From the NCBI GenBank assembly GCA_044233485.1, contig JBIIJY010000002.1, positions 8,047 through 72,046 on the forward strand: a stretch of DNA of 64,000 bases, written 5' to 3'. The notes beneath the pieces are model-generated. The model did not search any database. It was not told where the DNA came from and saw only the letters and a list, made by a program, of their open reading frames with translations. Below are positions 3,685 to 49,197 of the stretch, one piece after another (within the stretch, counting starts at the first letter, position 1; each line of letters opens with the position of its first letter). The stretch comes from Minisyncoccia bacterium. Lineage in GTDB: Bacteria; Patescibacteriota; Minisyncoccia; Phycocordibacterales; UBA6065. Made by a program: the position numbers and the translations under genes.

Positions 3685-6600
3685 TTACCTCCCCCTCCCC
3701 ATCACCCCCCTCGTCACCGGGCCAAAGAAGCCAAGAGCGGGAGTAATGTTGTTGGCTTTCTGGTAGCGGATGAGAGCAGCACGGGTAGCAGGGCCAAAGT
3801 AGAAGGTTTCGTTGCCAGGAGAGCCAAAGCCTGTCGTAGAGACAGTGAAGCCTTGTGAGTTCAAGAAGCGTTGGAGGAGCTGTACATCAGTACCGTATGA
3901 AGAGACGGTGAGACTACGGGTGAAGGTAGTGGGTGTAATGGGTGGTGGGAGGATGTTGGTGGTCGATGAGAGGCGTAGGAGTGTGGTGGTACCTCGGGGG
4001 GTGTTGACGACCACAGGAGCAGAGCGGCCGCCACCTCCTCCGCCGGAGCGAGAGATGGTGGTGACTACGGGAGCCGGGACAACAGTGAGAGTGAATTCTT
4101 GAGTATGGTAGAAGACTTGAGCCGCTGAGAGTGTATCAGTGATTTTGATACTGAAGGTAGAGGTGGTAGCGGTGGTTGGAGTACCACTGATGATGCCGGT
4201 GCTGGTGTTGAGAGAGAGGCCGTCGGGGAGGGTGCCAGAGGTGAGTTCATACGTAACAGTTCCCTGCTCTCCCTTAGGAGTGAGGAGGGTGAAATATGAA
4301 GTGCCGACCGTAGCCTGTGAGATGGTCGGTGAAGAGAAGGAGATCAGCTGGAAGAGGAGGAGGCGCCTTGGCGCTTGATCTGCGTAGTAGAGGATTCTAT
4401 CAGAATTATTAAACTCCATCGAGTAACCGTACTGAATGGCACTTTGCGTGACGGAATTCGTGTCGGTTATTGAAGTAAAATTAGTACTGTTAAGTATCGC
4501 CACCGCCCCTTCGTTATTTGCAATATCTGCCGTGTCATAAATTTTGACTCGGGCGACGTTGGACGCTTGTGCGTCCATGACATAGAGAAGTTTATTTTGA
4601 GAATCAAATGTAAGCGCATTTGGGCCAGTGAAGCCGGACTGTGTTGTCTCACTTACCTGTGCAGTGAAATTTACTTGCCCGAGTACATACGAAGCATCCA
4701 TACCGTTCGTAATACCACTGGAGAGATCGAAGACAAGAATGCGGTTGAACTGACCATCAGCTACAAACAAGAGTGAACGACCTTCATCAATAGCAATATC
4801 ACTAATAAAAGTACTTGATGCCGTTGGTGATGCCGGCTCTGTATCTGTCGTAAAATCCGGCTGCCCGAGCACATACGAAGCATCCATACCGTTGGTGATA
4901 CCACTGGAGAGATCGAAGACAAGAATGCGGTAATTTGACGGGTCATTTACAAAAAGTCGCTTATGAAGAGAGTCATATTCAATCCCATCGCCGTTGTAAC
5001 CAGCAAACTGATTTTCAGAAAGACCAGGAGAAAGAGTGGTGAAGTTTGTCGAACCAAGTACGTATGAAGCATTCATATTATCTACAACTCCATTTGAAAC
5101 ATCGAACACCAAGACGCGCCCGAAGTAATCGAGTACGAATAGTCGCTGCTCTTCATCATCATAAGTGATAGATTTTGAACCCAAACCAAATCTATTTGCT
5201 GTTGTAGTGGCGTTACATTCACGCTCAATGGAATCACAGCCAATTACCGCCTCTGGAGTGGTATCTACCGGACGACCACTGGCAGTGAGATTATACACTC
5301 GGACTTCACCGTTACCTCCCACAAAAAGTCTGTTGCGTGTCTCATCGACAGCAATCGCTATAGGAATAAGTCTATTGAATACCGGCTGATCATACACCTG
5401 ACTCTTAGAAAAGTTTTGATTTCCCTGCGAGTCCGTCTGGCCGAGTACTCTATATGCACTCATACCGTTTTCGATAGTTCCCGGACTCACATTAAAGACC
5501 AAAACTCGAGCGCGATCACTATCTGCCACAAACAGGTCGAGCTCACCGTTACCTCTGACATTAATCTGTAAATCTCCTGCAGAACCTACGTTATTTCCAG
5601 AGACAGATGGGTCATAGTCAGACCCTGTATAGTATGCGGAAGTAAAGTTGGGACCACCCAACACATACGTCGCATCCATACCATTGGTAATCCCCCCCGA
5701 GAGGTCGAAGATGAGGATGCGACCAAATTCAAAAACATACAGTCTGTTTTGATGAACGGTAATCGAACTAGGCGCATTAACAAAACTAGAGCCGGTCATT
5801 CCTGTAACTCCCGACTCGAAATCCGGTTGCCCGAGTACATACGACGGATCCATGCCATTCGTGATTCCACCCGAGAGATCGAAGACAAGGATACGGTAGG
5901 AATATGCATCAAGTACAAAAAGTCTCTCGCTCACCTCATCGTAAAAAACATCATTTACATCAATCGTAGAACTCGCCGTCAAACTGTCTCCAAGATTTGT
6001 TTCCAAATCTGGCTGCCCGAGTGCATACGAAGCATCCATATTGTCCATAATCCCAGCACTCATATCAAAAATAAGCACTCGATTTAAGGTTTGATCTGTC
6101 ACAAATAATCGCTCAGTTGTCGTACTGTAGTGAATTTTTCCTACTGCAGCGAAGTTGTTTGCAAGTGGTGATAATGGTGAATCCCCTGTCTCAAAATCTG
6201 GCTGCCCGAGCACATACGACGCGTCCATACCATTGGTAATTCCCCCCGAGAGGTCGAAGACGAGAATGCGATTCCAAAGGTAGTCTGCAACATAGAGGAG
6301 TTGATTCACCGAGTCAATTTCGATTCCACTTGCTGCGAACTCACGGGCATTTGCGTCAACTGGACTATTGTTAGTCACAAAATCTGGTTGCCCCAGAACA
6401 TAGTCTGCAACATTATCAATAAGTTCATTATCAGTCGTAAGATTGTAGACCAAGATACGTGTCTCACCATCGAGAACATAGAGCTTGTGATGCACTGGAT
6501 CCAGAGTAATTGAAAAAGGCCACTGGAAACCGTTGGCGCTCGCATCGATATTCCCGCCGTATGAAGTAGTAAAGCTCGGATTACCACTTACATCAAACGT

Positions 6601-6735
6601 TCCAAGAACATCGGATGCATTAAAACCCGCTTCGGCCACTTGTGGTGCCCAAACGACGAGTGAGAGTATAGAGAGAAAAACTATTGTACCGAACTTTTGC
6701 ACAACACAAATTAGTATATCACCACTATCGCACAA
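3685..6735 (-). CDS. giant secreted beta-propeller (NHL/YVTN-like) repeat protein with Gly-rich linker and C-terminal peptidoglycan-binding-like domain
   Basis: Signal-peptide-like N-terminus (KFGTIVFLSILSLVVWAPQVAEA). At least 10 repeats of the type LYV.D....RILVFDLSGGITNGMDASYVLGQPDF. The C-terminus (DVQLLQRFLNSQGF...FGPATRAALIRYQKANNI...GFFGPVT) resembles a PG_binding_1 fold. Exact start uncertain. Confidence 0.7.
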   Translation of the reverse strand: MCDSGDILICVVQKFGTIVFLSILSLVVWAPQVAEAGFNASDVLGTFDVSGNPSFTTSYGGNIDASANGFQWPFSITLDPVHHKLYVLDGETRILVYNLTTDNELIDNVADYVLGQPDFVTNNSPVDANAREFAASGIEIDSVNQLLYVADYLWNRILVFDLSGGITNGMDASYVLGQPDFETGDSPLSPLANNFAAVGKIHYSTTTERLFVTDQTLNRVLIFDMSAGIMDNMDASYALGQPDLETNLGDSLTASSTIDVNDVFYDEVSERLFVLDAYSYRILVFDLSGGITNGMDPSYVLGQPDFESGVTGMTGSSFVNAPSSITVHQNRLYVFEFGRILIFDLSGGITNGMDATYVLGGPNFTSAYYTGSDYDPSVSGNNVGSAGDLQINVRGNGELDLFVADSDRARVLVFNVSPGTIENGMSAYRVLGQTDSQGNQNFSKSQVYDQPVFNRLIPIAIAVDETRNRLFVGGNGEVRVYNLTASGRPVDTTPEAVIGCDSIERECNATTTANRFGLGSKSITYDDEEQRLFVLDYFGRVLVFDVSNGVVDNMNASYVLGSTNFTTLSPGLSENQFAGYNGDGIEYDSLHKRLFVNDPSNYRILVFDLSSGITNGMDASYVLGQPDFTTDTEPASPTASSTFISDIAIDEGRSLLFVADGQFNRILVFDLSSGITNGMDASYVLGQVNFTAQVSETTQSGFTGPNALTFDSQNKLLYVMDAQASNVARVKIYDTADIANNEGAVAILNSTNFTSITDTNSVTQSAIQYGYSMEFNNSDRILYYADQAPRRLLLFQLISFSSPTISQATVGTSYFTLLTPKGEQGTVTYELTSGTLPDGLSLNTSTGIISGTPTTATTSTFSIKITDTLSAAQVFYHTQEFTLTVVPAPVVTTISRSGGGGGGRSAPVVVNTPRGTTTLLRLSSTTNILPPPITPTTFTRSLTVSSYGTDVQLLQRFLNSQGFTVSTTGFGSPGNETFYFGPATRAALIRYQKANNITPALGFFGPVTRGVMGRGR

Positions 6736-6801: not shown

Positions 6802-8322
6802 TTACTTGGTCATCAAATCTTTGTTCTTTTGATACCACTGGAATACATTCACCCCTGCAAGAATTATTACCACAAGGAGAAGCCAGAGCCATGCGGGCAC
6901 TCGAGAGAGGTCGATCGAGAGTGCAGCCGCGCCGGCAAGATTTCGATTGCCACTTCGAGCAACAGGATTCGTCCCGTCACCGTCGAGCACTGCGAGTGAA
7001 CAGTTTCGTACAATGGATTGTGTACCTGAAGTAACAGTTACAAACATATCTTTAGTACCACCTTCATTGTATGAGGTCGTGATCTGTGAAGTCGAACCAT
7101 TGACCCCGTCAGTTCCTGTCCAAGCGTATGAGTACTTGCCTGTTCCACCAGTCGGCTGAACAGTCCAGTTCACTTCCTGACCGATCTCTGCCTGATTTAC
7201 ACCAGGAACACAGACCGCATCAAGCTTTCCTGTTGCAGCGGCTGTAGCGACTGTCCGTGTCACTGTCGGAGCAACATAGGTTGTCACTGGAGCGACATAT
7301 GTCTGAGCTGGTCGTGAGGCTACTGTCACTGAAGGACAGTTCACACGACTCGTACGATACTGATTTCGAACAGTAAGGACGATATCTTTCGTACCAGCAG
7401 AACTGAAACTTGTCGTAAAACGACTTCCTCGACCATTGGTATCTGCCCCTGCCCAATAATATTCAAGGTCACCACCAGCATAGTCTGTGTATGCCGTAAA
7501 CTCTACCGTCGCACCTGTGAGTACGTATCGTGGAGACACCTCACATCGTGCGGTGCCGAAATTGTATCGGTCTCGAGAGTTGTTGTATGAATAGTCGTAA
7601 TAATTGTCGTTATAATAATCAGTCTCACGAACAGTTACACTGCCACAGTTAAGATAACTTGAGTAGCCATTAGTATCGTAGAGTGTTACATATGCATATT
7701 TCGTACCTGAGAAGTCATAGGTAATATCCATTCGTGATGAATCACCGTACAAACCCTCTGAACCAGACCAGGCATATGAATAAGAACCAGTCCCTCCATT
7801 TGGGTACACTCGCCAACGCACTGTCTGACCACGGTCGACAACTGAGCGGTCTGGTGAACAAGTACCATTTACATTTGACCCAGGGAAATTATTCCCACGG
7901 TTATTTGAGGCGTTTGTCGGGAGCCCACAACGAAGCTCGAGAATTCCACTATTAAATTGCTTTGCGGGGATTGAAGTCCAGCCACTATTTGTCCAACTAA
8001 TAATAAAGTTGTCACTTGGAGAATCAAAACTAATAGGAGTATAGCCAAGTGATACTGCCTGAGGATGTGAAGCACGACACACTGCCTGAGCAGTTGCCTC
8101 GTTTGCCTGATAGCGAGCAGCGTATGCGTTCAACACTCCTTCACCGTTTGTATTCGTGAAGACACAGTACTGCGTTGATCCGAGGAGACGGATCTCAGCG
8201 CCGGTAGGACATCCATACACTCGAGGTGGATTGTAATCTGCCGCTTGAGCACTTGTCGCGCCAAACGTAAGAGCAACTGCGGTGAGTCCGAGTGCATACA
8301 AAGCTGTTTTTAGCGTTTTCAT
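6802..8322 (-). CDS. secreted PKD-repeat protein with C-terminal transmembrane anchor
   Basis: Signal peptide MKTLKTALYALGLTAVALTFGATSAQA (start at 8322). Three PKD-like modules (YSYAWSGSEG / YYWAGADTNG / YSYAWTGTDG ... NCxSVTV). C-terminal WLWLLLVVIILAGVNVF helix followed by KNKDLMTK. Confidence 0.65.
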   Translation of the reverse strand: MKTLKTALYALGLTAVALTFGATSAQAADYNPPRVYGCPTGAEIRLLGSTQYCVFTNTNGEGVLNAYAARYQANEATAQAVCRASHPQAVSLGYTPISFDSPSDNFIISWTNSGWTSIPAKQFNSGILELRCGLPTNASNNRGNNFPGSNVNGTCSPDRSVVDRGQTVRWRVYPNGGTGSYSYAWSGSEGLYGDSSRMDITYDFSGTKYAYVTLYDTNGYSSYLNCGSVTVRETDYYNDNYYDYSYNNSRDRYNFGTARCEVSPRYVLTGATVEFTAYTDYAGGDLEYYWAGADTNGRGSRFTTSFSSAGTKDIVLTVRNQYRTSRVNCPSVTVASRPAQTYVAPVTTYVAPTVTRTVATAAATGKLDAVCVPGVNQAEIGQEVNWTVQPTGGTGKYSYAWTGTDGVNGSTSQITTSYNEGGTKDMFVTVTSGTQSIVRNCSLAVLDGDGTNPVARSGNRNLAGAAALSIDLSRVPAWLWLLLVVIILAGVNVFQWYQKNKDLMTK

Positions 8323-8408
8323 AGTGGTAACTTGAATTAAGTTCATAGATAGTAATTATATCGCGTTTTAGACGCGCTGTCAATGGCACCCGAGGGCTTT
8401 CCGAGGCC

Positions 8409-19813: not shown

Positions 19814-22800
19814 TTATTCCTTGAGAATCACATTAATAAGCTTGTCCTGTCTGAAGATTATACGCATAACCACCTTTCCTGCAAGCCATTTCGAGAGGCC
19901 ATTCTCAGTGTGGATAACTTCCATCACCTCCTGCTCACTCATTCCCCGCTTTACTGACACCGTCCCGCGAGTTTTACCCTGCACCTGCACCACAAGCTCT
20001 ACCGTATCAGTAATAAGCTTCGTTGCGTCCGCTACTGGCCAGGACGCCACGACAACGGACCCTTTGTTGCCAAGAGCGTTCCAGAGCTCTTCAGCCATAT
20101 GTGGAGCAAATGGAGCTAGAATCTTCACGAGAAGTTCAAAATCCTTCTTAGGAATCTTAACTTCTGCCTCAAGAGCATTAGTGAAGATCATCAATGCGGA
20201 AATTGCTGTGTTGAATTTCATCTCAGCGATATCACTCGTCACTTTTACAATAGTCTGATGCAACTTCGTCTCCACTGCAGGAGAAAGTACCACCGACGAA
20301 TCTTTGTACTCGACTTTCTCAGATAATCCCCATACTCGCTCGAGAAAACGACGAACACCCACCATCCCCGAAGTATTCCAAGCAATGGTTTCGGCAAATG
20401 GCCCCATGAACATCTCATACACGCGCATTGTATCCGCTCCGTACGTCTTGACCATTTCATCGGGATTGACCACGTTTCCGAAACGCTTACTCATCTTGCG
20501 ACCATCCTCACCCATGATGAGACCAACACTTTGAAGCTTCGTGAATGGCTCTCGAGTCGAAACCACGCCGATATCATAGAGAAACTTGTGCCAGAAACGA
20601 GCATAGATGAGGTGACGTGTCGCATGCTCTGCCCCACCAACATAGAGATCAACCGCATTCCAATACTGTTCTTTCACTGGATCAACAAGTGCTTTATTAT
20701 TTTTCGGATCCATATAGCGGAGATAATACCAAGATGACCCTGCCCACTGTGGCATCGTATTGGTTTCACGATACGCTTTGCACTCGCGATTAAGTACTCG
20801 ATGTATATCTTCGAAGTTCGAAAGGATCTGCGTGTCGGGCAATACTTCATTTAATTTCTGGAAACCATGATATCCCCACGCGCAGCCGACAAGCTTCCTG
20901 CGATCGAGGAGATTTTCAAGCTCATACACATCAGCTTTAGTGTCAGTGAAGTAGTAAACGTCCCGTACACCCACCTTCCAATCACGACAGATTTGCTCTA
21001 TCTTTTCTTCTTTCGAATGATGATCTTCGTACGCAAGAATATGTGTCGGTTTTAAACCAGATTTCTTCATTGCTTCAACCACATAGATACGTGAACCGGA
21101 AGATACCACAGCAATTTTTGTATTCTTGAATTTCTTGATCTCCTTAATGAAGTCATGGAAGAGATCGAATTTAGAATTCTTCATTATTTCACCGAACTTT
21201 TTCGACCATTGAAGAGCCTCTTCAAGCCGAGTTTGAGTAAGCATCTGATCTCGTGTGTGGAAAGGTTTTTTGTCAAAATACAGCACCATATCACGAGCCG
21301 CTTCCTCTTCATTTAAAGAGTCGCCAATCTGAACTTTTGCCTTGAGTGTTGCCATCCAGGTATCGCCAAGTACACCGTCAAAGTCAAAGACAAAGTAGCG
21401 AGGCTTATTTTTCTCCGCAACACAGCGCGGACAGGTCGTCTCGACCCACTTGGTAATTGCCGCGAGTGGCGACTCTCCGGTACCAGTCGGTTCATATGAC
21501 TTCACATTTGGAAGTTCTACCGGTAGATCGGCATCGTCGATCAAAAATGTTCCATGCACCGGGCACGTTGCTACAGGAAAAGGCTCGCCCCAGTATCGCT
21601 GACGTGAGAACACCCAATCCTTGAGCCGGTACTTCACTTCCCAGGTACCACCGAGCGCTTGCGTGATTTCTTTTCGACTGGCGAATGCTTCTTTACCACT
21701 AAACGCACCCGAGTCGAGTAGATACCCGTCGCCGGTATACACTCCCTGACCACGAGTGACCAGGTTCCAACCATGGAGATAGGCACGAGTATCGCCTGCT
21801 TCTTTTCCACTCTCAATGAAAGTGTGTACCGCATCTTTTGCCACCCACTCATATGAGTGCTTCGCCAGCTCTGCAAGCTCTATCGGATCCTGAGCTCCGT
21901 CTTTGAGCTCGACCAGCACAGTATGGATCGTGCTCTTTTGATTGTGTTTTTTCCCTGGATGATAAAAATGACTGATGGATGGACTTTGGAACTCGGTGAC
22001 ACGTGCAATATTTCGGTACCCAGTTTCTTCGACGAGTTCTCGAAGTGCGGCATCACTTGGCTTCTCTCCACTTTCAATTCCGCCAGTAATAAATGTTTTC
22101 CAACCGACTTTCCAGTTCAAACACAAGTACGAATCATTGTTCCAATGCTTCGCAATCACAAGGACGACATCTCGCGTGACTTCTGGTGCATCTTGCTTTG
22201 GCGTACACTGCCCAGTCGTATCGACATAGAGCGGAGCGACTACTGTCTGAATCGGAAGTTTGCATGTTTGGGCAAATTCAAAATCACGCTCATCATGAGC
22301 TGGCACCGCCATCACTGCTCCGGTACCATAACTTCCAAGCACATAGTCAGCAACATAGACCGGCACTGGCTTTTTTGTAAATGGATTGATTGCCTGTACA
22401 CCCTTCAAGACGACGCCGGTTTTTTGCGCCACCTCTGTCCGTGTTCGCTCAGTCTTTTTTAGTGATTCCTGCACATACGCCGATACTGCTTGAGCATCTG
22501 CGCCACCACGGGCAGTATATTCTTTGACGAGAGCATGCTCTGGAGCGACCACAACATAGGTAACTCCGGCAATCGTGTCCGGACGAGTAGTGAATACGTG
22601 AAGCTCACTATGGGCACTCTCAGCTTCATGAGTAAGCGCAAAGGTGAGACGTGCTCCTTCACTGCGACCGATCCAGTTTCGCTGACTCTCCTTTATTGAC
22701 TCTGGCCAATCAAGAAGTGGCTTAGGAAACCCTCGAGATGGATCTTTGAGGCGTAGTAGCCATTCAGGAAGTTCTGAATTGACCATGTGCGGTGGAGCGA

Positions 22801-23851
22801 ACTCACTTTCAGAAACCCACAAAATTTCGTTTTGTGCATCTTCACCTGGAGCGAGGGCGACACGAGCATCACTTTGAAGTTCAAAAAGTACCGCGGTCGA
22901 GATTGAGATGCGATTTTCGCCTTTATGCTTTGCAAAATAGTGAGCTTCGACCGGCGCGCCGAGTGTACGAACAAATTTCAAATCGGTATACCCTGTCTCT
23001 TCACGAACTTCACGCTGTGCGGCTTGCACAGCATTCTCCCCTTCCTCAATTCCACCAATAATAAGCGTATCCCACGCAAACTTCTTATTTCGAATAATCA
23101 AATATTTCTTTGACTTTGGGTCAAAAACAATCGCATGAGCCGCCTGGCGAGTGACACTAGGCTTGCCTGATTGAGGTGGATTCACGTGATCTACAACCTT
23201 TGGGATCGGTGGCTCGGCAACCGCATCGAGATCAGCCAAAAGTCGATCGGCATAATCCGTGATTTTGAGTACCCACTGACGAAGTGGTTTTTGCTCCACA
23301 AGCGAGTCACAACGCTCACAGTGTCCATCGACGACGTCTTCGTTTGCCAAACCGGTCTTACATGAAGGACACCAGTTGATCGGCTCAAATGACTCATACG
23401 CAAGCCCCTTCTCGTGCATCTTCGCAAAGACCCACTGAGTCCATTTATAAAATGCTGGGTCAGTCGTATTAACCTCTCGTGACCAGTCATAGTCAAGACC
23501 GAGAATCTCGAGCTGTTTTTTATATCGCGCAACATTTTTCTTTACTGAAACCTGCGGATTAGTTTTTGTTTTGATCGCATAGTTTTCTGCCGGAAGGCCG
23601 AAAGCGTCGAACCCCATCGGGTGCAACACATTGAAACCCTGCATACGCTTCATACGAGAGATGATATCAGTGGCAATATACCCTTTTGGGTGCCCGACAT
23701 GGAGCCCCTCACCAGACGGGTATGGGAACATATCGAGAATGTAGTACTTTGGAGCCTGAGTAGCCAGTGCCTCAGCTGTTTTATATACCTTTTTTTGAGC
23801 CCACACTTTTTGCCACTTTTTTTCTATCTTGGCTGGGTCGTATTTTTTCAT
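19814..23851 (-). CDS. leuS: leucyl-tRNA synthetase with three inserted hydrolase domains (2x NUDIX, 1x HAD); 1345 aa
   Basis: LeuS signatures: MFPYPSGEGLHVGHPKGY, PMGFDAFGLPAEN, WPESIKESQRNWIGRSEG, YRLKDWVFSRQRYWGEPFP, KMSKRFGNV and a C-terminal domain. Insertions carry Nudix boxes (GGIEEGENAVQAAQREVREETGY; GGIESGEKPSDAALRELVEETGY) and HAD motif I (FVFDFDGVLGDTW). Confidence 0.85.
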   Translation of the reverse strand: MKKYDPAKIEKKWQKVWAQKKVYKTAEALATQAPKYYILDMFPYPSGEGLHVGHPKGYIATDIISRMKRMQGFNVLHPMGFDAFGLPAENYAIKTKTNPQVSVKKNVARYKKQLEILGLDYDWSREVNTTDPAFYKWTQWVFAKMHEKGLAYESFEPINWCPSCKTGLANEDVVDGHCERCDSLVEQKPLRQWVLKITDYADRLLADLDAVAEPPIPKVVDHVNPPQSGKPSVTRQAAHAIVFDPKSKKYLIIRNKKFAWDTLIIGGIEEGENAVQAAQREVREETGYTDLKFVRTLGAPVEAHYFAKHKGENRISISTAVLFELQSDARVALAPGEDAQNEILWVSESEFAPPHMVNSELPEWLLRLKDPSRGFPKPLLDWPESIKESQRNWIGRSEGARLTFALTHEAESAHSELHVFTTRPDTIAGVTYVVVAPEHALVKEYTARGGADAQAVSAYVQESLKKTERTRTEVAQKTGVVLKGVQAINPFTKKPVPVYVADYVLGSYGTGAVMAVPAHDERDFEFAQTCKLPIQTVVAPLYVDTTGQCTPKQDAPEVTRDVVLVIAKHWNNDSYLCLNWKVGWKTFITGGIESGEKPSDAALRELVEETGYRNIARVTEFQSPSISHFYHPGKKHNQKSTIHTVLVELKDGAQDPIELAELAKHSYEWVAKDAVHTFIESGKEAGDTRAYLHGWNLVTRGQGVYTGDGYLLDSGAFSGKEAFASRKEITQALGGTWEVKYRLKDWVFSRQRYWGEPFPVATCPVHGTFLIDDADLPVELPNVKSYEPTGTGESPLAAITKWVETTCPRCVAEKNKPRYFVFDFDGVLGDTWMATLKAKVQIGDSLNEEEAARDMVLYFDKKPFHTRDQMLTQTRLEEALQWSKKFGEIMKNSKFDLFHDFIKEIKKFKNTKIAVVSSGSRIYVVEAMKKSGLKPTHILAYEDHHSKEEKIEQICRDWKVGVRDVYYFTDTKADVYELENLLDRRKLVGCAWGYHGFQKLNEVLPDTQILSNFEDIHRVLNRECKAYRETNTMPQWAGSSWYYLRYMDPKNNKALVDPVKEQYWNAVDLYVGGAEHATRHLIYARFWHKFLYDIGVVSTREPFTKLQSVGLIMGEDGRKMSKRFGNVVNPDEMVKTYGADTMRVYEMFMGPFAETIAWNTSGMVGVRRFLERVWGLSEKVEYKDSSVVLSPAVETKLHQTIVKVTSDIAEMKFNTAISALMIFTNALEAEVKIPKKDFELLVKILAPFAPHMAEELWNALGNKGSVVVASWPVADATKLITDTVELVVQVQGKTRGTVSVKRGMSEQEVMEVIHTENGLSKWLAGKVVMRIIFRQDKLINVILKE

Positions 23852-23882
23852 TGTTGTAATACCAAAATATCACAGACTCGTC

Positions 23883-23918
23883 AAAAAGAAAAAGCCCCCG
23901 ACCTACGGTCGGGGGCTT
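23883..23918 (-). terminator. rho-independent terminator (minus strand) ending the trmD-side transcript before leuS
   Basis: Minus strand: AAGCCCCCGACC-GTAG-GTCGGGGGCTT followed by TTTTCTTTTT. Confidence 0.7.
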
Positions 23919-23919
23919 C

Positions 23920-24289
23920 GCGAAAGAATTTTCAGGCTTGTGCCATGACCCCTCTTGGCTCACGCCGATAGGGACGAATATGCGGCGGGCGGGCGGGTCG
24001 GGTCTGCGCCCGAGTCCGAGAGTGGCGGTCAATGCGACCAGGGTGCCGTCCGAGGCTTCGGGTATTGTTCCTCGGGGTAAACACTCTGATATAGAACGCC
24101 ATCATCGAGCCGATGTGGTGTGGCGGAGTTACAAGCGCTCTCAACGGCCCGTGATAGAGCTCGATCGAGACCGGTTCGGGAATCACAAGGATTCCGAGCG
24201 TGGAGCATGCGCCAAGGAAGGCAAGCACGGGGCAATGGGAAGCTATTCCTGCATAGTGGGTTCTCATTCAGGAAAAATCGTACTCCTTT
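23920..24289 (-). other. GC-rich (about 60%) non-coding island between trmD and the terminator; candidate structured ncRNA or decayed rplS slot
   Basis: No credible conserved ORF. The only ORF is 111 aa, Arg/Pro-rich and unrecognisable. Base composition is strongly skewed against the flanks. Ends at an intrinsic terminator. Sits where rplS normally follows trmD. Confidence 0.35.
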
Positions 24290-44463: not shown

Positions 44464-47400
44464 TTACTTTTTTATTGTATACCCCCACCCTTGCAATAGC
44501 AGACGGGTCTGGAGCTCGAGAAATTCAAGCAGTGCGCGCTCAGTATTTATTCCAAACGTATTTGTTTCTTTACCTGGGGCACCGACTCCTGAGGGAGCCA
44601 CTCTGAAACCGGTAGAATTTAAGAAAACTTGTAACTCTCTTACACTTGTACTCCTTTGAATAGGTGTCTGAACTGGAGGTAGCGATGTTGTCTGTCTCTG
44701 ATTTGAAGGAGGATTTACCTGAGGGATGGTGTTTACCTGAGGCACGACAGGAGTCACTGCCGTCGGCCGAAACAAGGTACTGATTGTACTGATAAATCTT
44801 CGTGTACGACTTGATCCACCAGAAGCACTCGAGGAAGTTCCAGGCGTAGAAGAGACAGTACTTACCGTACTCACCGTAACCACCGAAGAGAGCGCTGAGT
44901 AGTTCCCCGCACCATCATAGCTTCGAACGGAATAGAGGTATGAAGCTCCACTTGAGAGACCTGTATCTGTGAAAGTAATAGCTGTTGTCGTAGCAATCGG
45001 TGCTCCACCTCGATAGACGACATACCCGACAACACCAGACGCAGTTCCACCGCTAGTACCACTGTCGGTAGAGCTTGCCCACGTAAGTGTAATTTGAGTT
45101 GTAGTAACTTCACTTGAAATGAGGCCAGTAGGGACACTTGGCGCTGTAGTATCAGGAACATCTGCGACTGTATAAATAAATGACTGACTTGTTTGGTTTA
45201 CCCCATCACTCGCGGTCACTCTGATCGATGTTGTACCGACTTGCCCGTTGAGCGGACGAACCACCATCGACCATGTCCCTGTGGCAAAGTTGAAGCTAAC
45301 ATTCTGATTCGGAACTAGTGAAGTATTTGACGAAATGACAGAGAGAGTCAAATCTCCAACAAGCGTCTGGTCATCGGTCACTGAAATAGCTATTGGACTC
45401 GAGCTCGCACTGATAACCCCTTGTGCAGGTGGAAGCGCGTGCAGTACAGGAGCTGCATATACCGTGAGGCTTTGGTGAGCACCCTGACTATTGTTGTAGT
45501 AGCTACCACTAGGTGTAGTCTCAAGCAGCACTGCTCGTACCTGATACTGGGCATTGTAAGCATCAAATGTTGTTGTCGCTGAAGTACCTGTAACGAGTTG
45601 AGTAGAGACTCGCGTGTACGGGCCTGAGGTAGTATGAGCGCGGTAAATATGATACCCGAGAACAGTATCCGCTGATGCTGTCCATGCGAGCGAGACAGTC
45701 GTCGAGGATGTAGTTGCTACCACAAGACTTGTGGCTGGTTTCACCACGTCTGTGCGGAGGGTAGGGTCGCCGAGGAAAGCCATGTATGATGCACCACTTC
45801 CGCGATTACCAGAGTAGAGAATATTGTTCCCTACCTGATTGTTCTGTGACGCTAAAATACTTGCGCTCATCGGTTCTCCGATACCTGCTGGGTGGAAGTA
45901 CCAGTGTGGTCTACCTGACCAAACTGACGTCAGTGCCCCACCAGCACTTGCAAGAGGGGCTCGGAGGAAGTTGTCACTATTGTTCCAATCTCCGAAGTAG
46001 CTACCGAAGAGCATATTGAATACTCCGTATGTCGGAGCTGCCGCATAGTCACTTGAGTTCGCCACGCCACTTGCCCCTGTATATCCTGCCCCTCCAGCTC
46101 CATATACCCACTTGTAGTTAATTGTCCGTATATTGTTTAGAAAATCAGCAGATGATGTTGATACGACAATATTATCACCACCAATGAGTGGTGAAAAACT
46201 TCTCCACCCACTAGCTGCAAATGCCTCACCACCAAAGACTCCAAAGTTATCAGACAGGAATGCTCTGTCGACTGTCGTGTAGTTACCGATACGGTAATTA
46301 TGGTTTCTGTTTAGATATTGTTCATGTAGAGCATTTGCAGTACCGAATGATCCCATACTTCGTAGATCGAGTCTTCCGACTGCAATTTCAATATTGCTAT
46401 TAGCCGTGACTGCGCTAAGGCTCTGGTCAAACTTTCCATCACCTGGTACGTTGTCATTTATCGTACCGGTAGAGGATGTGTTGTTTACGGTTGAGTCAGT
46501 CCATACCGCATTCATCTCTCCATAATATGCATCTGCTGGCCACGCTCCTCTATGATCAGAGTGTCCATCTGGATTAATGTTTCCAGAATATGGCACCGGT
46601 ATTGCACCCACAAGGAACACTGCTTTGACGTTAGTTGGATCTGCATCATAGTGCCCTTCTATCAGTGTCTTTACAGATGATACGGTCGCCGTACTATCGT
46701 CTACTTCCTCATATATCACCGTCCATCCGTCTCCTGAGAGGTCTAGTACCAGCTGATTCACTTCGTCAGTCATGGCCGCTACCGTTGCATCATCTACGAC
46801 GAGTATCACTTTTCCTCTGTCGTCTACGAGGGGTACTTCGATACCAGAATACAGATATCCATATGCGAACGTTCCTCCTGTTATATTCTTTACTACCTTG
46901 TATTCATATTTGGTACCCAGAGATATATTCGTATCAACGAATCTTCTAGATCCATACAATACTGAAGCAATTGAACTTCCCCAGTTGATATCTGTAGTAG
47001 CCTTTCTGTATATTGTGTAGCTTGTAACTCCCGACTCTAGTGGCCATTCAATTGTAATCGATGGGTCACCTGAATTTACAGTTACGTTTAGTTGTAATGT
47101 GTAGTTCTGCATTCCACCACTAGGAAGATCGAAAGATATACTTGCTCCATTGTTATCAACCGTAACAAAAGATTTAATTGCACCATAACTTGTACCGATC
47201 GCATTAGTTACATATGCTCTGTAGTAGTATTTTGTATTTGCTGTAAGACCCGTTAACCCACCACTGAATGATCCAGTACCAGAATATGTTCCGAGTGATG
47301 AAGTAGCAATTACACTTGAGAGCGTCGGTGATGTGCCATATGCAAACCCATGTGTTATCGTATCACTACCTCCGGTCGAGATGATGTCTCCATGTAGGGT

Positions 47401-49197
47401 AACTGTTGTTGTACCTAGTAACGTAAGTCCATTGGTTTCAACAACCGATGTAGCTGTTGATGCTAGGGTTGTAAATGTCTTTACATCTGTACTGTATGAT
47501 GTACCGCTTCCGTTTGTTGCATATGATTTGTAGTAGTATGTGGTGTTAGCAGAGAGTCCTGTTACTGAAGCAGAGTACGCTCCAGTTTCAAATATTCCTG
47601 CTTCTGTAGTCGTAGCCCCAAATGACAGTGTGGTTCCATATACGAAACCACGGGAGGTAGCACTACTTCCATTTGTATCTTGAATACTTCCGTTTAGTGT
47701 CGCTGTTGTTATCGCAATCAGGGACGCATCTGATGGAATTGTTGTAGGGGGTGAGTACGATCTAGTTGTAAATGACTCTATAGCACTAAAGCTTGTACCT
47801 CCAGAGTTTGTTGCATATGAGCGGAAGTAGTAGGTAGTACCTGGAGAAAGACCTGATACTGCCTGTTCTAGAAATCCGGTACCTGAATATGATCCGAGTG
47901 TTGATGTTGCAATTACTGTAGAGAGATTTGCTGATGTACCGTATGCAAATCCATATTGAGTTGCATCACTACCTCCTGTTGCTGTTATCTGACTGTTTAG
48001 TGTTGCTGAAGTGTATGATACGGCTGAAGCGAACAACTGAGATACAGTTGGCGGATCAACATCTGAAGTCGTTGTAAATGAGAGTTCTGAACCATAGTTT
48101 GTTGATGTGGCGTTTAGTGCAAACGCTTTGAAGTAGTATGTTGTGTTTTGAGTTAGTCCTGTTAGGTTCTTTGAGAACGCCCCTACTCCGTATGTTCCAG
48201 TATCGCTGGTTGTTGATGTGTATATACCAGAAGTTGTTCCATATACGAAACCGCGGGAGGTGGAGGAGGCAATACCTGACTGGGAAGTAATTGATCCATT
48301 TAGGGTTGCAGTACTTGTAGAGACCAATGAGGCAACAGATGTTGTGACTGAGGCACTATAGCCTAGTTTGTAAATTTCTAGAGCATCGTTTGTAGAGAGA
48401 GCTCGGTTGTAGATGCGGAGGTCGTCGATATATCCAGAGAGAGGAAAAGTGAACCCGTTAAGATCACCTCCTATCTGAAGTGGCCAAGCTGATCTCATTA
48501 ATGCGCCAGGATCAACACCACCACTCATGGGAGTATCGAGTAGAACACCGTTACGATACATCTTGAAATGACTTTGAGGACCTGGTGAATAAGCAAGAGA
48601 CATATTCATACCACTGAAAGTGATGACATAGTTAACCCAATTTGTTCTATAGTTTGTACCAGTTGTAGGACAGTAGCTAGGTAGATTTACACCAGAGCCA
48701 GTGTCTGCAGCGATCACAAAAGAAGAGGAATCTCCAGATGGATACGAGCTACAGGTATCAAGAAAGCCGGCTTCAACCATAAAGTACCCAATGCTCCCGG
48801 TAGGATCATTATAGAAAAGTGCACTTGGGTCGGAGGCCATTACTGATTTTGTAGACTTATACCAAAGCGATATTGTAAATGTTTCGTCTCGCTCGAAATC
48901 AAAGGCTGCCACACTATTTGTCATTTCAACATACCCTGTTCCATTGAATACCAACGCCTGTCCAACTGGCCCAGCAATAGTCGAAGTAGCCATTCCGTTT
49001 TTTATAAACGCATGGTTACCTTGACCAGAACTATCGGCAACGTTTGATGTTAGACTGGCAGTATCAAATGTATAGTGTCCTATCAAACCAGTGGTGATGT
49101 CTGCGCGCACTGTGGCAGGAAAAAAGCACACGCAAAGGAAGAACAAACTACATAGTACTGAAAAAATCCTCGAGGTGTGAGAACGGAAAGTATTCAT
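44464..49197 (-). CDS. giant secreted surface protein (1577 aa): LamG-like domain, six or more FN3-like repeats, putative peptidase-like domain, C-terminal peptidoglycan-binding-like domain
   Basis: Signal peptide. LamG-type FTISLWYKS...YIDDLRIYNRAL. Repeats of about 95 aa (TATLNGSI..SRGFVYGTT..TTYYFKA). Central DGHSDHRGAWPADAYYGE region. C-terminal SVRELQVFLNSTGF...FGINTERALLEFLELQ module. Confidence 0.7.
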   Translation of the reverse strand: MNTFRSHTSRIFSVLCSLFFLCVCFFPATVRADITTGLIGHYTFDTASLTSNVADSSGQGNHAFIKNGMATSTIAGPVGQALVFNGTGYVEMTNSVAAFDFERDETFTISLWYKSTKSVMASDPSALFYNDPTGSIGYFMVEAGFLDTCSSYPSGDSSSFVIAADTGSGVNLPSYCPTTGTNYRTNWVNYVITFSGMNMSLAYSPGPQSHFKMYRNGVLLDTPMSGGVDPGALMRSAWPLQIGGDLNGFTFPLSGYIDDLRIYNRALSTNDALEIYKLGYSASVTTSVASLVSTSTATLNGSITSQSGIASSTSRGFVYGTTSGIYTSTTSDTGTYGVGAFSKNLTGLTQNTTYYFKAFALNATSTNYGSELSFTTTSDVDPPTVSQLFASAVSYTSATLNSQITATGGSDATQYGFAYGTSANLSTVIATSTLGSYSGTGFLEQAVSGLSPGTTYYFRSYATNSGGTSFSAIESFTTRSYSPPTTIPSDASLIAITTATLNGSIQDTNGSSATSRGFVYGTTLSFGATTTEAGIFETGAYSASVTGLSANTTYYYKSYATNGSGTSYSTDVKTFTTLASTATSVVETNGLTLLGTTTVTLHGDIISTGGSDTITHGFAYGTSPTLSSVIATSSLGTYSGTGSFSGGLTGLTANTKYYYRAYVTNAIGTSYGAIKSFVTVDNNGASISFDLPSGGMQNYTLQLNVTVNSGDPSITIEWPLESGVTSYTIYRKATTDINWGSSIASVLYGSRRFVDTNISLGTKYEYKVVKNITGGTFAYGYLYSGIEVPLVDDRGKVILVVDDATVAAMTDEVNQLVLDLSGDGWTVIYEEVDDSTATVSSVKTLIEGHYDADPTNVKAVFLVGAIPVPYSGNINPDGHSDHRGAWPADAYYGEMNAVWTDSTVNNTSSTGTINDNVPGDGKFDQSLSAVTANSNIEIAVGRLDLRSMGSFGTANALHEQYLNRNHNYRIGNYTTVDRAFLSDNFGVFGGEAFAASGWRSFSPLIGGDNIVVSTSSADFLNNIRTINYKWVYGAGGAGYTGASGVANSSDYAAAPTYGVFNMLFGSYFGDWNNSDNFLRAPLASAGGALTSVWSGRPHWYFHPAGIGEPMSASILASQNNQVGNNILYSGNRGSGASYMAFLGDPTLRTDVVKPATSLVVATTSSTTVSLAWTASADTVLGYHIYRAHTTSGPYTRVSTQLVTGTSATTTFDAYNAQYQVRAVLLETTPSGSYYNNSQGAHQSLTVYAAPVLHALPPAQGVISASSSPIAISVTDDQTLVGDLTLSVISSNTSLVPNQNVSFNFATGTWSMVVRPLNGQVGTTSIRVTASDGVNQTSQSFIYTVADVPDTTAPSVPTGLISSEVTTTQITLTWASSTDSGTSGGTASGVVGYVVYRGGAPIATTTAITFTDTGLSSGASYLYSVRSYDGAGNYSALSSVVTVSTVSTVSSTPGTSSSASGGSSRTRRFISTISTLFRPTAVTPVVPQVNTIPQVNPPSNQRQTTSLPPVQTPIQRSTSVRELQVFLNSTGFRVAPSGVGAPGKETNTFGINTERALLEFLELQTRLLLQGWGYTIKK

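Follow-up and report, generated by a model that had tools for sequence, protein, structure and literature searches.

A leucyl-tRNA synthetase of a Patescibacteria bacterium interrupted by two Nudix domains and a HAD domain

Aminoacyl-tRNA synthetases (aaRS) are among the most conserved enzymes and are thought to be architecturally stable in bacteria. Synthetase scaffolds with acquired modules are represented by an isoleucyl-tRNA synthetase (IleRS) with a GNAT domain (NF040702) and by the eukaryotic aaRS with appended domains, and the split alpha/beta leucyl-tRNA synthetase (LeuRS) of Aquifex aeolicus (3pz5 and 3o0a, both among our matches in the Protein Data Bank, PDB) indicates that LeuRS tolerates an interruption of its polypeptide. 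Here we analyse a LeuRS gene (leuS) in a stretch of 64,000 nucleotides from a Minisyncoccia bacterium of the Patescibacteria (positions 8,047 to 72,046 of contig JBIIJY010000002.1, assembly GCA_044233485.1; hereafter the window, in which positions are given unless a relative is named). Its product shares with the canonical bacterial LeuRS of Thermus thermophilus (1h3n), Escherichia coli (4aq7) and Neisseria gonorrhoeae (7nu4) the whole collinear core, the HIGH and KMSKS signatures, the connective peptide 1 (CP1) domain, the ZN-1 module and the anticodon-binding and C-terminal domains, but exceeds them by about 550 residues in three inserted enzyme domains. In contrast to the fused, appended and split synthetases mentioned above, the window LeuRS has complete, unrelated hydrolases inserted internally, in several loops, in combinations that vary between species, the modules deriving from free-standing neighbours; we know of none of these insertion features in the IleRS-GNAT protein, the eukaryotic appended aaRS or the Aquifex LeuRS.

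The gene occupies 19814..23851 on the minus strand as one uninterrupted open reading frame (ORF) of 1345 codons plus stop. The protein scores 934.7 bits against the NCBIfam equivalog leuS_bact (TIGR00396, cutoff 548.4), matched in four collinear pieces, and Pfam recognises in it tRNA-synt_1, the LeuRS editing domain (aa 391-542; PF13603, 179.7 bits) and Anticodon_1. The same scan places NUDIX on two stretches (95.9 bits, cutoff 21.1) and HAD_2 on aa 821-975 (31.9 bits, cutoff 23.8). Insert boundaries were set by residue-level alignment with T. thermophilus LeuRS (1h3n), in which aa 1-210, 380-538, 704-811, 1026-1114 and 1120-1344 correspond to Thermus residues 1-209, 210-362, 376-488, 491-579 and 638-877, respectively, and three segments (aa 211-379, 539-703 and 812-1025) have no Thermus counterpart. 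A sequence-only reading of this DNA had described a LeuRS collinear with the canonical enzyme and interrupted in frame by two NUDIX domains and a HAD domain. Pfam, leuS_bact and the 1h3n alignment all agree with it: the domain searches find NUDIX and HAD in the inserted segments, and the nucleotide ranges and flanking motifs that it gave for the three domains fall inside the aligned inserts.

The core retains the hallmarks of a class I synthetase. Core segment 1 (aa 1-210; 23222..23851, minus strand, as are all parts of the gene) contains the N-terminal Rossmann half, with HVGH (the HIGH motif) at aa 51-54 and the ZN-1 knuckles CPSC and CERC. Core segment 2 (aa 380-538; 22238..22714) is the CP1 editing core, recognised by PF13603 and by its Thr-rich TTRPDT (aa 421-426) and conserved-Asp AHDERD (aa 518-523) motifs. 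Core segment 3 (aa 704-811; 21419..21742), delimited by the alignment, includes the ZN-2-like knuckles CPVH (aa 763-766) and CPRC (aa 807-810), and core segment 4 (aa 1026-1345 plus stop; 19814..20776) comprises the second Rossmann half, KMSKR (aa 1119-1123) and the anticodon-binding and C-terminal domains. Unlike the canonical enzymes, the window protein has CPVH instead of CxxC in one ZN-2 knuckle and, as the 1h3n alignment indicates, it is devoid of the leucine-specific domain of the Thermus LeuRS. An AlphaFold2 model of aa 1-1200, built from a 73-sequence alignment, has a mean predicted local distance difference test score (pLDDT) of 88.4 and a predicted template-modelling (TM) score of 0.74, the inserts being among its most confident parts. 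The modelled core superimposes on bacterial LeuRS crystal structures with target-normalised TM scores of 0.6-0.7, and Foldseek searches with the 1200-aa model returned LeuRS structures and nothing else. On this evidence the 1345-aa protein is a bacterial-type LeuRS, predicted to be functional, and probably the sole leucyl-tRNA synthetase of this Patescibacteria bacterium, which is Paceibacteria/Taylorbacteria-like.

Insert 1 (aa 211-379; 22715..23221; site 1) is perfectly clean: it lies between Thermus residues 209 and 210, flanked by LLADLDA and LDWPESIK, includes a Pfam NUDIX domain at aa 235-362 and is modelled with a pLDDT of about 90-96. Insert 2 (aa 539-703; 21743..22237; site 2), likewise matched by NUDIX, replaces the 13-residue loop formed by Thermus residues 363-375, near the C-terminal end of the editing domain. 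Both Nudix boxes, GGIEEGENAVQAAQREVREETGY in NUDIX 1 (aa 266-288, nt 22988-23056) and GGIESGEKPSDAALRELVEETGY in NUDIX 2 (aa 590-612, nt 22016-22084), fit GX5EX7REUXEEXGU exactly and are thus as intact as had been claimed. From the 120 closest LeuRS homologues we extracted 193 NUDIX modules, of which 189 retain the ExxEE core and 162 the strict box; modules at different sites share a mean pairwise identity of ~31%, and R235, K310, N313, R314 and W345 are conserved residues specific to the family. The Nudix fold and canonical box are shared with the diadenosine tetraphosphate (Ap4A) hydrolases 1f3y and 3i7u, with 2azw and with RppH/NudH. In contrast to free-standing Nudix hydrolases, the window modules sit in LeuRS loops, form a narrow family of their own and reach 20-30 bits against curated subfamilies. 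Both inserts are members of the Nudix superfamily (PF00293) and are predicted to be catalytically competent.

Insert 3 (aa 812-1025; 20777..21418; site 3) falls between Thermus residues 488 and 491, directly after CPRC. A HAD-like domain had been recognised here from its DxDG motif, and the assignment is upheld by scores above threshold for both TIGR01549 (HAD-SF-IA-v1; 26.1 versus 23.3 bits) and PF13419 (31.9 versus 23.8 bits) and by the presence of motifs I-IV: D823-F-D825-G-V, S917, K947 and D970/D974 (DxxxD). These motifs do not vary among 15 inserted modules and are also conserved across 46 free-standing homologues. Modelled in isolation (pLDDT 94.7), the insert shows a Rossmannoid core and a helical C1 cap at about aa 22-96 of the module, a layout typical of small-molecule phosphatases. 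Insert 3 is thus a member of HAD subfamily IA, predicted to be catalytically competent. The core, the C1 cap, the DxD nucleophile and acid-base pair, and the Ser, Lys and DxxxD motifs are shared with HAD-IA phosphatases (PpaX, BT2127, phosphoglycolate-phosphatase-like proteins and beta-phosphoglucomutase), from which the window HAD differs in a distinctive conserved C-terminal GCAWGY...LP..QIL and in belonging to a family that resides inside LeuRS, LysRS and Der, or beside leuS. Sequence comparison of the HAD insert with solved structures gave nothing significant (best E 0.07), and Foldseek returned generic HAD-IA proteins (phosphoglycolate-phosphatase-like proteins, the BT2127 pyrophosphatase and others).

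The HAD insert can be followed in a relative that is 87% identical to the window in DNA (protein P0002; locus L089, 1074-4472). Its LeuRS is 93% identical to ours in protein on both flanks of the segment, is without the HAD and without both ZN-2 knuckles, and carries KWVEVYVGKGKTKKLFKRETNT instead (compared with window 21419-21742). Across aa 761-800, just upstream of the junction, the DNA identity of the two genes falls to 0.59-0.77, with synonymous sites saturated, which suggests that the ZN-2/HAD segment was recently swapped by recombination, or lost, with the gene being kept. Since a LeuRS this similar does without it, the HAD is probably dispensable for LeuRS function.

The same comparison bears on the reality of the fusion. 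Estimates of dN/dS between the window and this relative are 0.056 for the core, 0.067 for NUDIX 1 and 0.033 for NUDIX 2, so purifying selection acts on both NUDIX inserts as strongly as on the core. The identical 1345-aa protein is encoded on independently assembled contigs (JGI 3300059473, 116 kb; Logan SRR27335598; JGI 3300043571) and is also in the database on a 681-kb contig. An assembly chimera, a concern raised in the sequence-only reading, is excluded by this recovery of an identical protein from at least three samples, and together with purifying selection the independent recovery rules out an assembly artefact or pseudogene. The GC content at third codon positions (GC3) is 0.38-0.45 in the inserts, close to the 0.40-0.53 of the core, and gives no support to a recent horizontal acquisition; the overall GC content of the HAD segment is lower (0.42) because of its Lys-rich composition. 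No intein, Hint or homing endonuclease domain was found by Pfam in the 1345-aa protein.

Each of the 120 closest LeuRS homologues (932-1722 aa long) carries at least one module, with NUDIX, HAD and alpha/beta-hydrolase domains combined at no fewer than five sites; those named at source are Patescibacteria, Paceibacterota, Parcubacteria and Taylorbacteria. Insert lengths are quantised, and mapping of the modules resolves more than 25 architectures. Site 1, before LDWPES, contains one NUDIX in 81 cases and two in tandem in 24. Site 1b, after WIGRSEGA, has an alpha/beta Ser-hydrolase in 21 cases and a HAD in three, with more of the latter in GTDB genomes. At site 2, where the editing domain ends, there is a NUDIX in 88 cases or, in GTDB genomes, a HAD. 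An alpha/beta hydrolase precedes ZN-2 in two cases, and a HAD follows it, at site 3, in 24. The architecture is therefore not the one-off that the sequence-only reading had implied. Among these 120, only the window protein has exactly its set of one NUDIX at site 1, another at site 2 and a HAD at site 3; the closest HAD-bearing relatives (P0003, P0004 and P0006) have one more, tandem NUDIX.

The module families differ in how they are distributed over the sites. HAD modules from the same site cluster together, in keeping with a few old insertions that were then inherited vertically. The NUDIX modules of one site mix with those of other sites and with the free-standing genes. We attempted to separate NUDIX types A and B with iterated hidden Markov models (HMMs), but a single HMM captured all modules and clustering by identity left the types intermixed across sites. 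The second tandem NUDIX at site 1 (in P0003, P0007, P0009 and others) has a degenerate box in 20 of 24 cases, with Q for E in G-x5-E and A or T for the Arg of RE; the strict box persists in 4/24 and ExxEE in 22/24. These second copies may be partly inactivated or respecialised paralogues.

The largest mosaic found is a LeuRS of 1795 aa (L050, 4676-10063), with a HAD at site 1b, a Ham1p_like domain, a NUDIX at site 2, a second Ham1-like stretch and a nucleotidyltransferase (PF10706/PF14907). The record is titled Methylomirabilis, probably through a binning error. Typical Patescibacteria LeuRS or HAD genes also appear under the titles uncultured Gammaproteobacteria, Saccharibacteria, Limisphaerales and Methylomirabilis (L018, L020, L021, L023-L027, L033, L044 and others), and the labels of such metagenome-assembled genomes look unreliable.

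The same module families exist outside LeuRS. With NUDIX 2 as the query, a full HMMER search of 1.84 billion representatives matched 300 proteins at E<=1e-3. Among the best 149 of these 300, ~95 are LeuRS, whole or in fragments, ~40-45 stand alone as proteins of ~160 aa and a few are fusions with an alpha/beta hydrolase; no large host other than LeuRS occurs among them. The HAD profile matched 255 proteins, mostly free-standing Patescibacteria proteins of ~205 aa that are 45-52% identical to the insert, and free-standing two-domain HAD+NUDIX proteins exist as well. Among the matches listed for GTDB species representatives, 35 of 44 HAD-family loci have a LeuRS containing or adjoining the HAD, as compared with one of 34 control loci with generic distant HADs.

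Free-standing module genes occupy a fixed slot abutting leuS, at a spacing of 2-70 nt. A Kaiserbacteria genome and three GTDB genomes (L007, L008, L038, L039 and L041) have a free HAD gene directly upstream of a leuS that is without the HAD, and a free NUDIX gene is found 2 nt upstream of leuS, the gene order being DUF5671 - X - leuS - sigma70_r4/HARE-HTH - DUF8128; the window keeps the leuS - sigma70_r4/HARE-HTH part of it. As the same families occur as separate genes at the 5' end of leuS, the fused form appears to be an operon partner turned into an internal domain.

Other translation genes are also involved. LysRS is a classical Ap4A-producing synthetase; in L044 (4270-7302) a 1010-aa LysRS with an OB anticodon domain and a class II core bears a C-terminal HAD of the LeuRS-associated family, and its tail is HDIG-like (TIGR00277, E 7e-4, below cutoff). 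In L003 (4970-6618; also L004) a free HAD gene overlaps the end of hisS by 4 nt, and the encoded 344-aa protein matches in Pfam the catalytic domain only, with no match to an anticodon-binding domain. In L005 (1476-5915; also L006) a ValRS-like gene is in two pieces, a 212-aa middle part ending after LDTWFSSSLWP and a 427-aa C-terminal part with KMSKS, anticodon domain and coiled coil. Tightly packed between them are genes for a HAD+NUDIX protein of 374 aa, a HAD of 203 aa and a Ham1-like protein of 207 aa. The N-terminal or editing part of this ValRS was not seen nearby, and the gene could represent a synthetase split into several pieces or a paralogue in decay. The HAD cassette has also entered a translation protein that is not a synthetase, as the ribosome-assembly GTPase Der/EngA (two G domains and a KH-like domain) has HAD modules inserted in L047 (4498-7971) and L052 (2053-3065); one such protein, of 1157 aa, has three HAD_2 stretches, two of them from the LeuRS-associated family.

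The NUDIX modules offer some clues on specificity. In a profile search of the PDB the best match was an uncharacterised Nudix protein of Enterococcus faecalis (2azw, E 1.4e-10), followed at ranks 2 and 3 by Ap4A hydrolases of Lupinus (1f3y, E 2.6e-9) and Aquifex (3i7u, E 2.8e-8); the profile also matches many other Nudix classes there. The X-loop residue ~16-18 positions after the Nudix box is Tyr in ApnA hydrolases (Dunn et al. 1999, reviewed in PMC5389931) and Pro in ADP-ribose enzymes, and NADH enzymes are marked by SQPWPFPQS (PMC5389931). Tyr is found at +17 in NUDIX 1 and +18 in NUDIX 2, a single-residue marker that is weak alone. Some 17 residues past the box, 186 of 187 modules have an aromatic residue, which in 137 is Tyr, a trait shared with ApnA hydrolases, and the NADH motif SQPWPFPQS is present in none of the 187. 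Taken together, these features weakly suggest that the NUDIX modules are of Ap4A-type specificity. Assignment to a curated NCBIfam subfamily (RppH, NudB or NudE) was tried and rejected, as every match is far below cutoff.

We propose, with a probability of about 0.45, that the modules act as small-molecule nucleotide/phosphate hydrolases that clear the nucleotide by-products of aminoacylation. They are three independently folding hydrolases inserted into surface loops of LeuRS, and would be accessory, outside its catalytic cycle, as close relatives lack one or another of them. The NUDIX domains would most likely cleave dinucleoside polyphosphates of the Ap4A type, or related nucleoside diphosphates linked to another moiety (NDP-X), that arise in aaRS side reactions. 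The HAD would most likely remove a phosphate or pyrophosphate (PPi) product and may work like the pyrophosphatase PpaX (NF009804), its best NCBIfam match, aligned over the full length at 28 bits. Fusion would ensure that synthesis of the modules keeps pace with that of the synthetase, in a genome that has very few regulators. What favours a functional link is the extreme bias of the modules towards LeuRS and other aaRS as hosts, together with the fixed slot abutting leuS. The sequence-only reading had seen in the fusion a built-in control of alarmones or misactivated intermediates; of this, the link between hydrolase and aaRS genes proved non-random, and Ap4A specificity is weakly supported, with no curated subfamily threshold reached. 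That idea does not account for the HAD domain, nor for the presence of the HAD family inside the Der GTPase.

Several observations weigh against this proposal. RppH models score 23-30 bits with cutoffs of 116-259, and the RppH and NudB matches lie at ~25-30 bits where more than 100 would be needed. PpaX membership of the HAD was likewise rejected (28 bits versus 218 required), and the structural neighbours of the HAD are 10-19% identical to it and functionally mixed. Some free-standing copies (L009, L033, L036, L045 and L046) adjoin no aaRS. A further host of the HAD family, the Der/EngA GTPase, yields no Ap4A and no PPi, and the Ham1/ITPase and nucleotidyltransferase modules that relatives have in addition belong to the classical house-cleaning enzymes, which have no connection with aminoacylation. 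Finally, a general role in the removal of aaRS by-products does not predict the ThrRS and CysRS of the window, which are of ordinary architecture and module-free.

In a more far-reaching scenario, which we consider unlikely in its entirety, a set of hydrolase cassettes (the LeuRS-associated NUDIX, HAD-IA, Ser-hydrolase, Ham1 and nucleotidyltransferase) would have moved repeatedly between the slot abutting leuS and the loops of LeuRS, rarely into LysRS, ValRS or Der, and would destroy aaRS-made Ap4A-type alarmones or PPi at source. If so, translation would be coupled directly to nucleotide-alarmone homeostasis in cells without conventional regulators.

The strongest rival to by-product clearance, quite possible although we rather doubt it, is that the modules, including the Ham1, Ser-hydrolase and nucleotidyltransferase modules of relatives, are ordinary enzymes of nucleotide-pool sanitation or salvage whose chemistry is unconnected with leucylation. 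A NUDIX might, for example, convert nucleoside triphosphates or NDP-X to nucleoside monophosphates, and a HAD nucleotidase the latter to nucleosides. Essential translation proteins would simply be hosts that tolerate insertions in their loops, and an essential, constitutive gene would secure expression and retention in a streamlined genome. The repertoire of the relatives conforms to such a role, being the classical set of NUDIX, HAD, Ham1p_like and nucleotidyltransferase (L050), with Ham1 also in L005, and the free HAD+NUDIX fusions suggest two consecutive steps on one metabolite. The HAD within the Der GTPase, the free copies not near any aaRS and the dispensability of the HAD in a 93%-identical LeuRS point in the same direction, and the occurrence of the same module types in several loops argues against a coupling to the LeuRS active sites that depends on geometry. 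The choice of host, however, is not random. NUDIX occurs in no large host but LeuRS among the best 149 of 300 matches, HAD-family loci are associated with LeuRS in 35/44 cases against 1/34 controls among the matches listed, and the other hosts or neighbours of the HAD are mostly aaRS (LysRS, ValRS-like and hisS). The free genes, moreover, keep to one slot, 2-70 nt from leuS, and ThrRS, CysRS, GyrB and LepA of the window are without modules.

It is much less probable that the inserts serve self-protection, destroying inhibitors that mimic aminoacyl-adenylates, or toxic nucleotide analogues, that target LeuRS and other translation enzymes. By analogy with the stand-alone resistance enzymes for microcin C- or agrocin-type compounds, such an activity could be useful to epibionts on antibiotic-producing hosts. 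Hydrolases of nucleotide-linked compounds are indeed attached to antibiotic targets (LeuRS, LysRS, ValRS-like and Der), their presence is very variable between close relatives, as is typical of conflict-driven traits, and NCBIfam has an IleRS with an appended acetyltransferase (NF040702). Nevertheless, homology to known resistance hydrolases was not detected, and the modules are old, vertically inherited within sites and of low dN/dS, not diversifying. The bond chemistry does not match either: Nudix enzymes cleave pyrophosphate bonds, and adenylate mimics bear acyl-phosphate, sulfamoyl or phosphoramidate links.

Equally improbable, in our estimation, is a non-catalytic function in which the folds would provide surfaces for binding tRNA, ribosome or partner proteins, for example in replacement of the leucine-specific domain. 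The Thermus-type domain is absent, and the degenerate box in 20/24 second tandem NUDIX copies indicates that some modules may have lost full activity. Yet the Nudix boxes of the window are canonical, ExxEE is kept in 189/193 modules and the HAD motifs are all invariant, a degree of conservation unexpected for a purely structural role at ~30-50% overall identity, and the same families function as free-standing proteins of 160-205 aa. As for the possibility that the inserts stem from a chimeric assembly or mark a pseudogene with a frameshift, or that they are an intein-like or mobile element excised from the translated protein, suggested by the unusual length of the protein and the lower GC (0.42, but not GC3) of the HAD segment, we practically dismiss it given the identical, unbroken ORF in at least three independent samples, the shared architecture of ~50-58% identical homologues, the purifying selection on the inserts, their GC3 near the core range and their complete NUDIX and HAD folds.

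The 438 nt that separate trmD and leuS (23852..24289, minus strand) deserve a separate mention, as this gap occupies the slot that holds a free-standing NUDIX or HAD gene in relatives. It has a GC content of ~0.55 (genome ~47%) and lacks a convincing ORF, and searches for Rfam families, tRNA and tmRNA gave no match. No further copies or remnants of the modules were found in the 64 kb, this gap included. Its folding z-score is -2.5, and at its end, ~40 nt ahead of the leuS start, a U-run follows a strong hairpin that resembles a terminator (GCCCCCGACCGUAGGUCGGGGGC). The gap is ~88% identical to that of the relative L089. Because it is conserved to the same degree as coding DNA and yet carries a 1-nt indel, it probably represents an unclassified non-coding RNA. 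Elsewhere in the window, a 1577-aa ORF (44464-49197, minus strand) has fn3 and purple-acid-phosphatase N-terminal domains, and a 1016-aa ORF (3685-6735, minus strand) has He_PIG, arylesterase-like and peptidoglycan-binding domains; both probably encode surface proteins of the large kind that typifies episymbiotic Patescibacteria. A further ORF, of 514 aa (6802-8346), has no Pfam match.

Full-text literature searches retrieved no account of a LeuRS containing NUDIX or HAD domains, nor of comparable modular insertions in the aaRS of Patescibacteria, and a 2026 survey of domain insertions mentions for LeuRS the CP1 editing domain alone. In public annotation the module-bearing proteins are called leucine--tRNA ligase or class I tRNA ligase family protein. 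The pattern is thus real, widespread and apparently undescribed: across a major uncultivated lineage, up to five additional enzymes are built into one essential synthetase, and their combinations number in the dozens. LeuRS is commonly used as a phylogenetic marker and is also a drug target; alignments and annotation can be distorted both by the insertions, which amount to 500-950 residues, and by bins with wrong taxonomic labels. If the modules are hitch-hikers, they would reveal an unusual route of genome streamlining, in which housekeeping enzymes are stored inside essential genes, and would provide a natural map, useful in protein engineering, of the LeuRS loops that tolerate the insertion of a whole domain. 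If, on the other hand, they act on by-products of the synthetase, they would represent the first case in which aminoacylation is covalently coupled to the clearance of Ap4A, PPi or nucleotides, and these Patescibacteria LeuRS would offer a tractable system for the long-debated physiological role of the dinucleotides that aaRS make.

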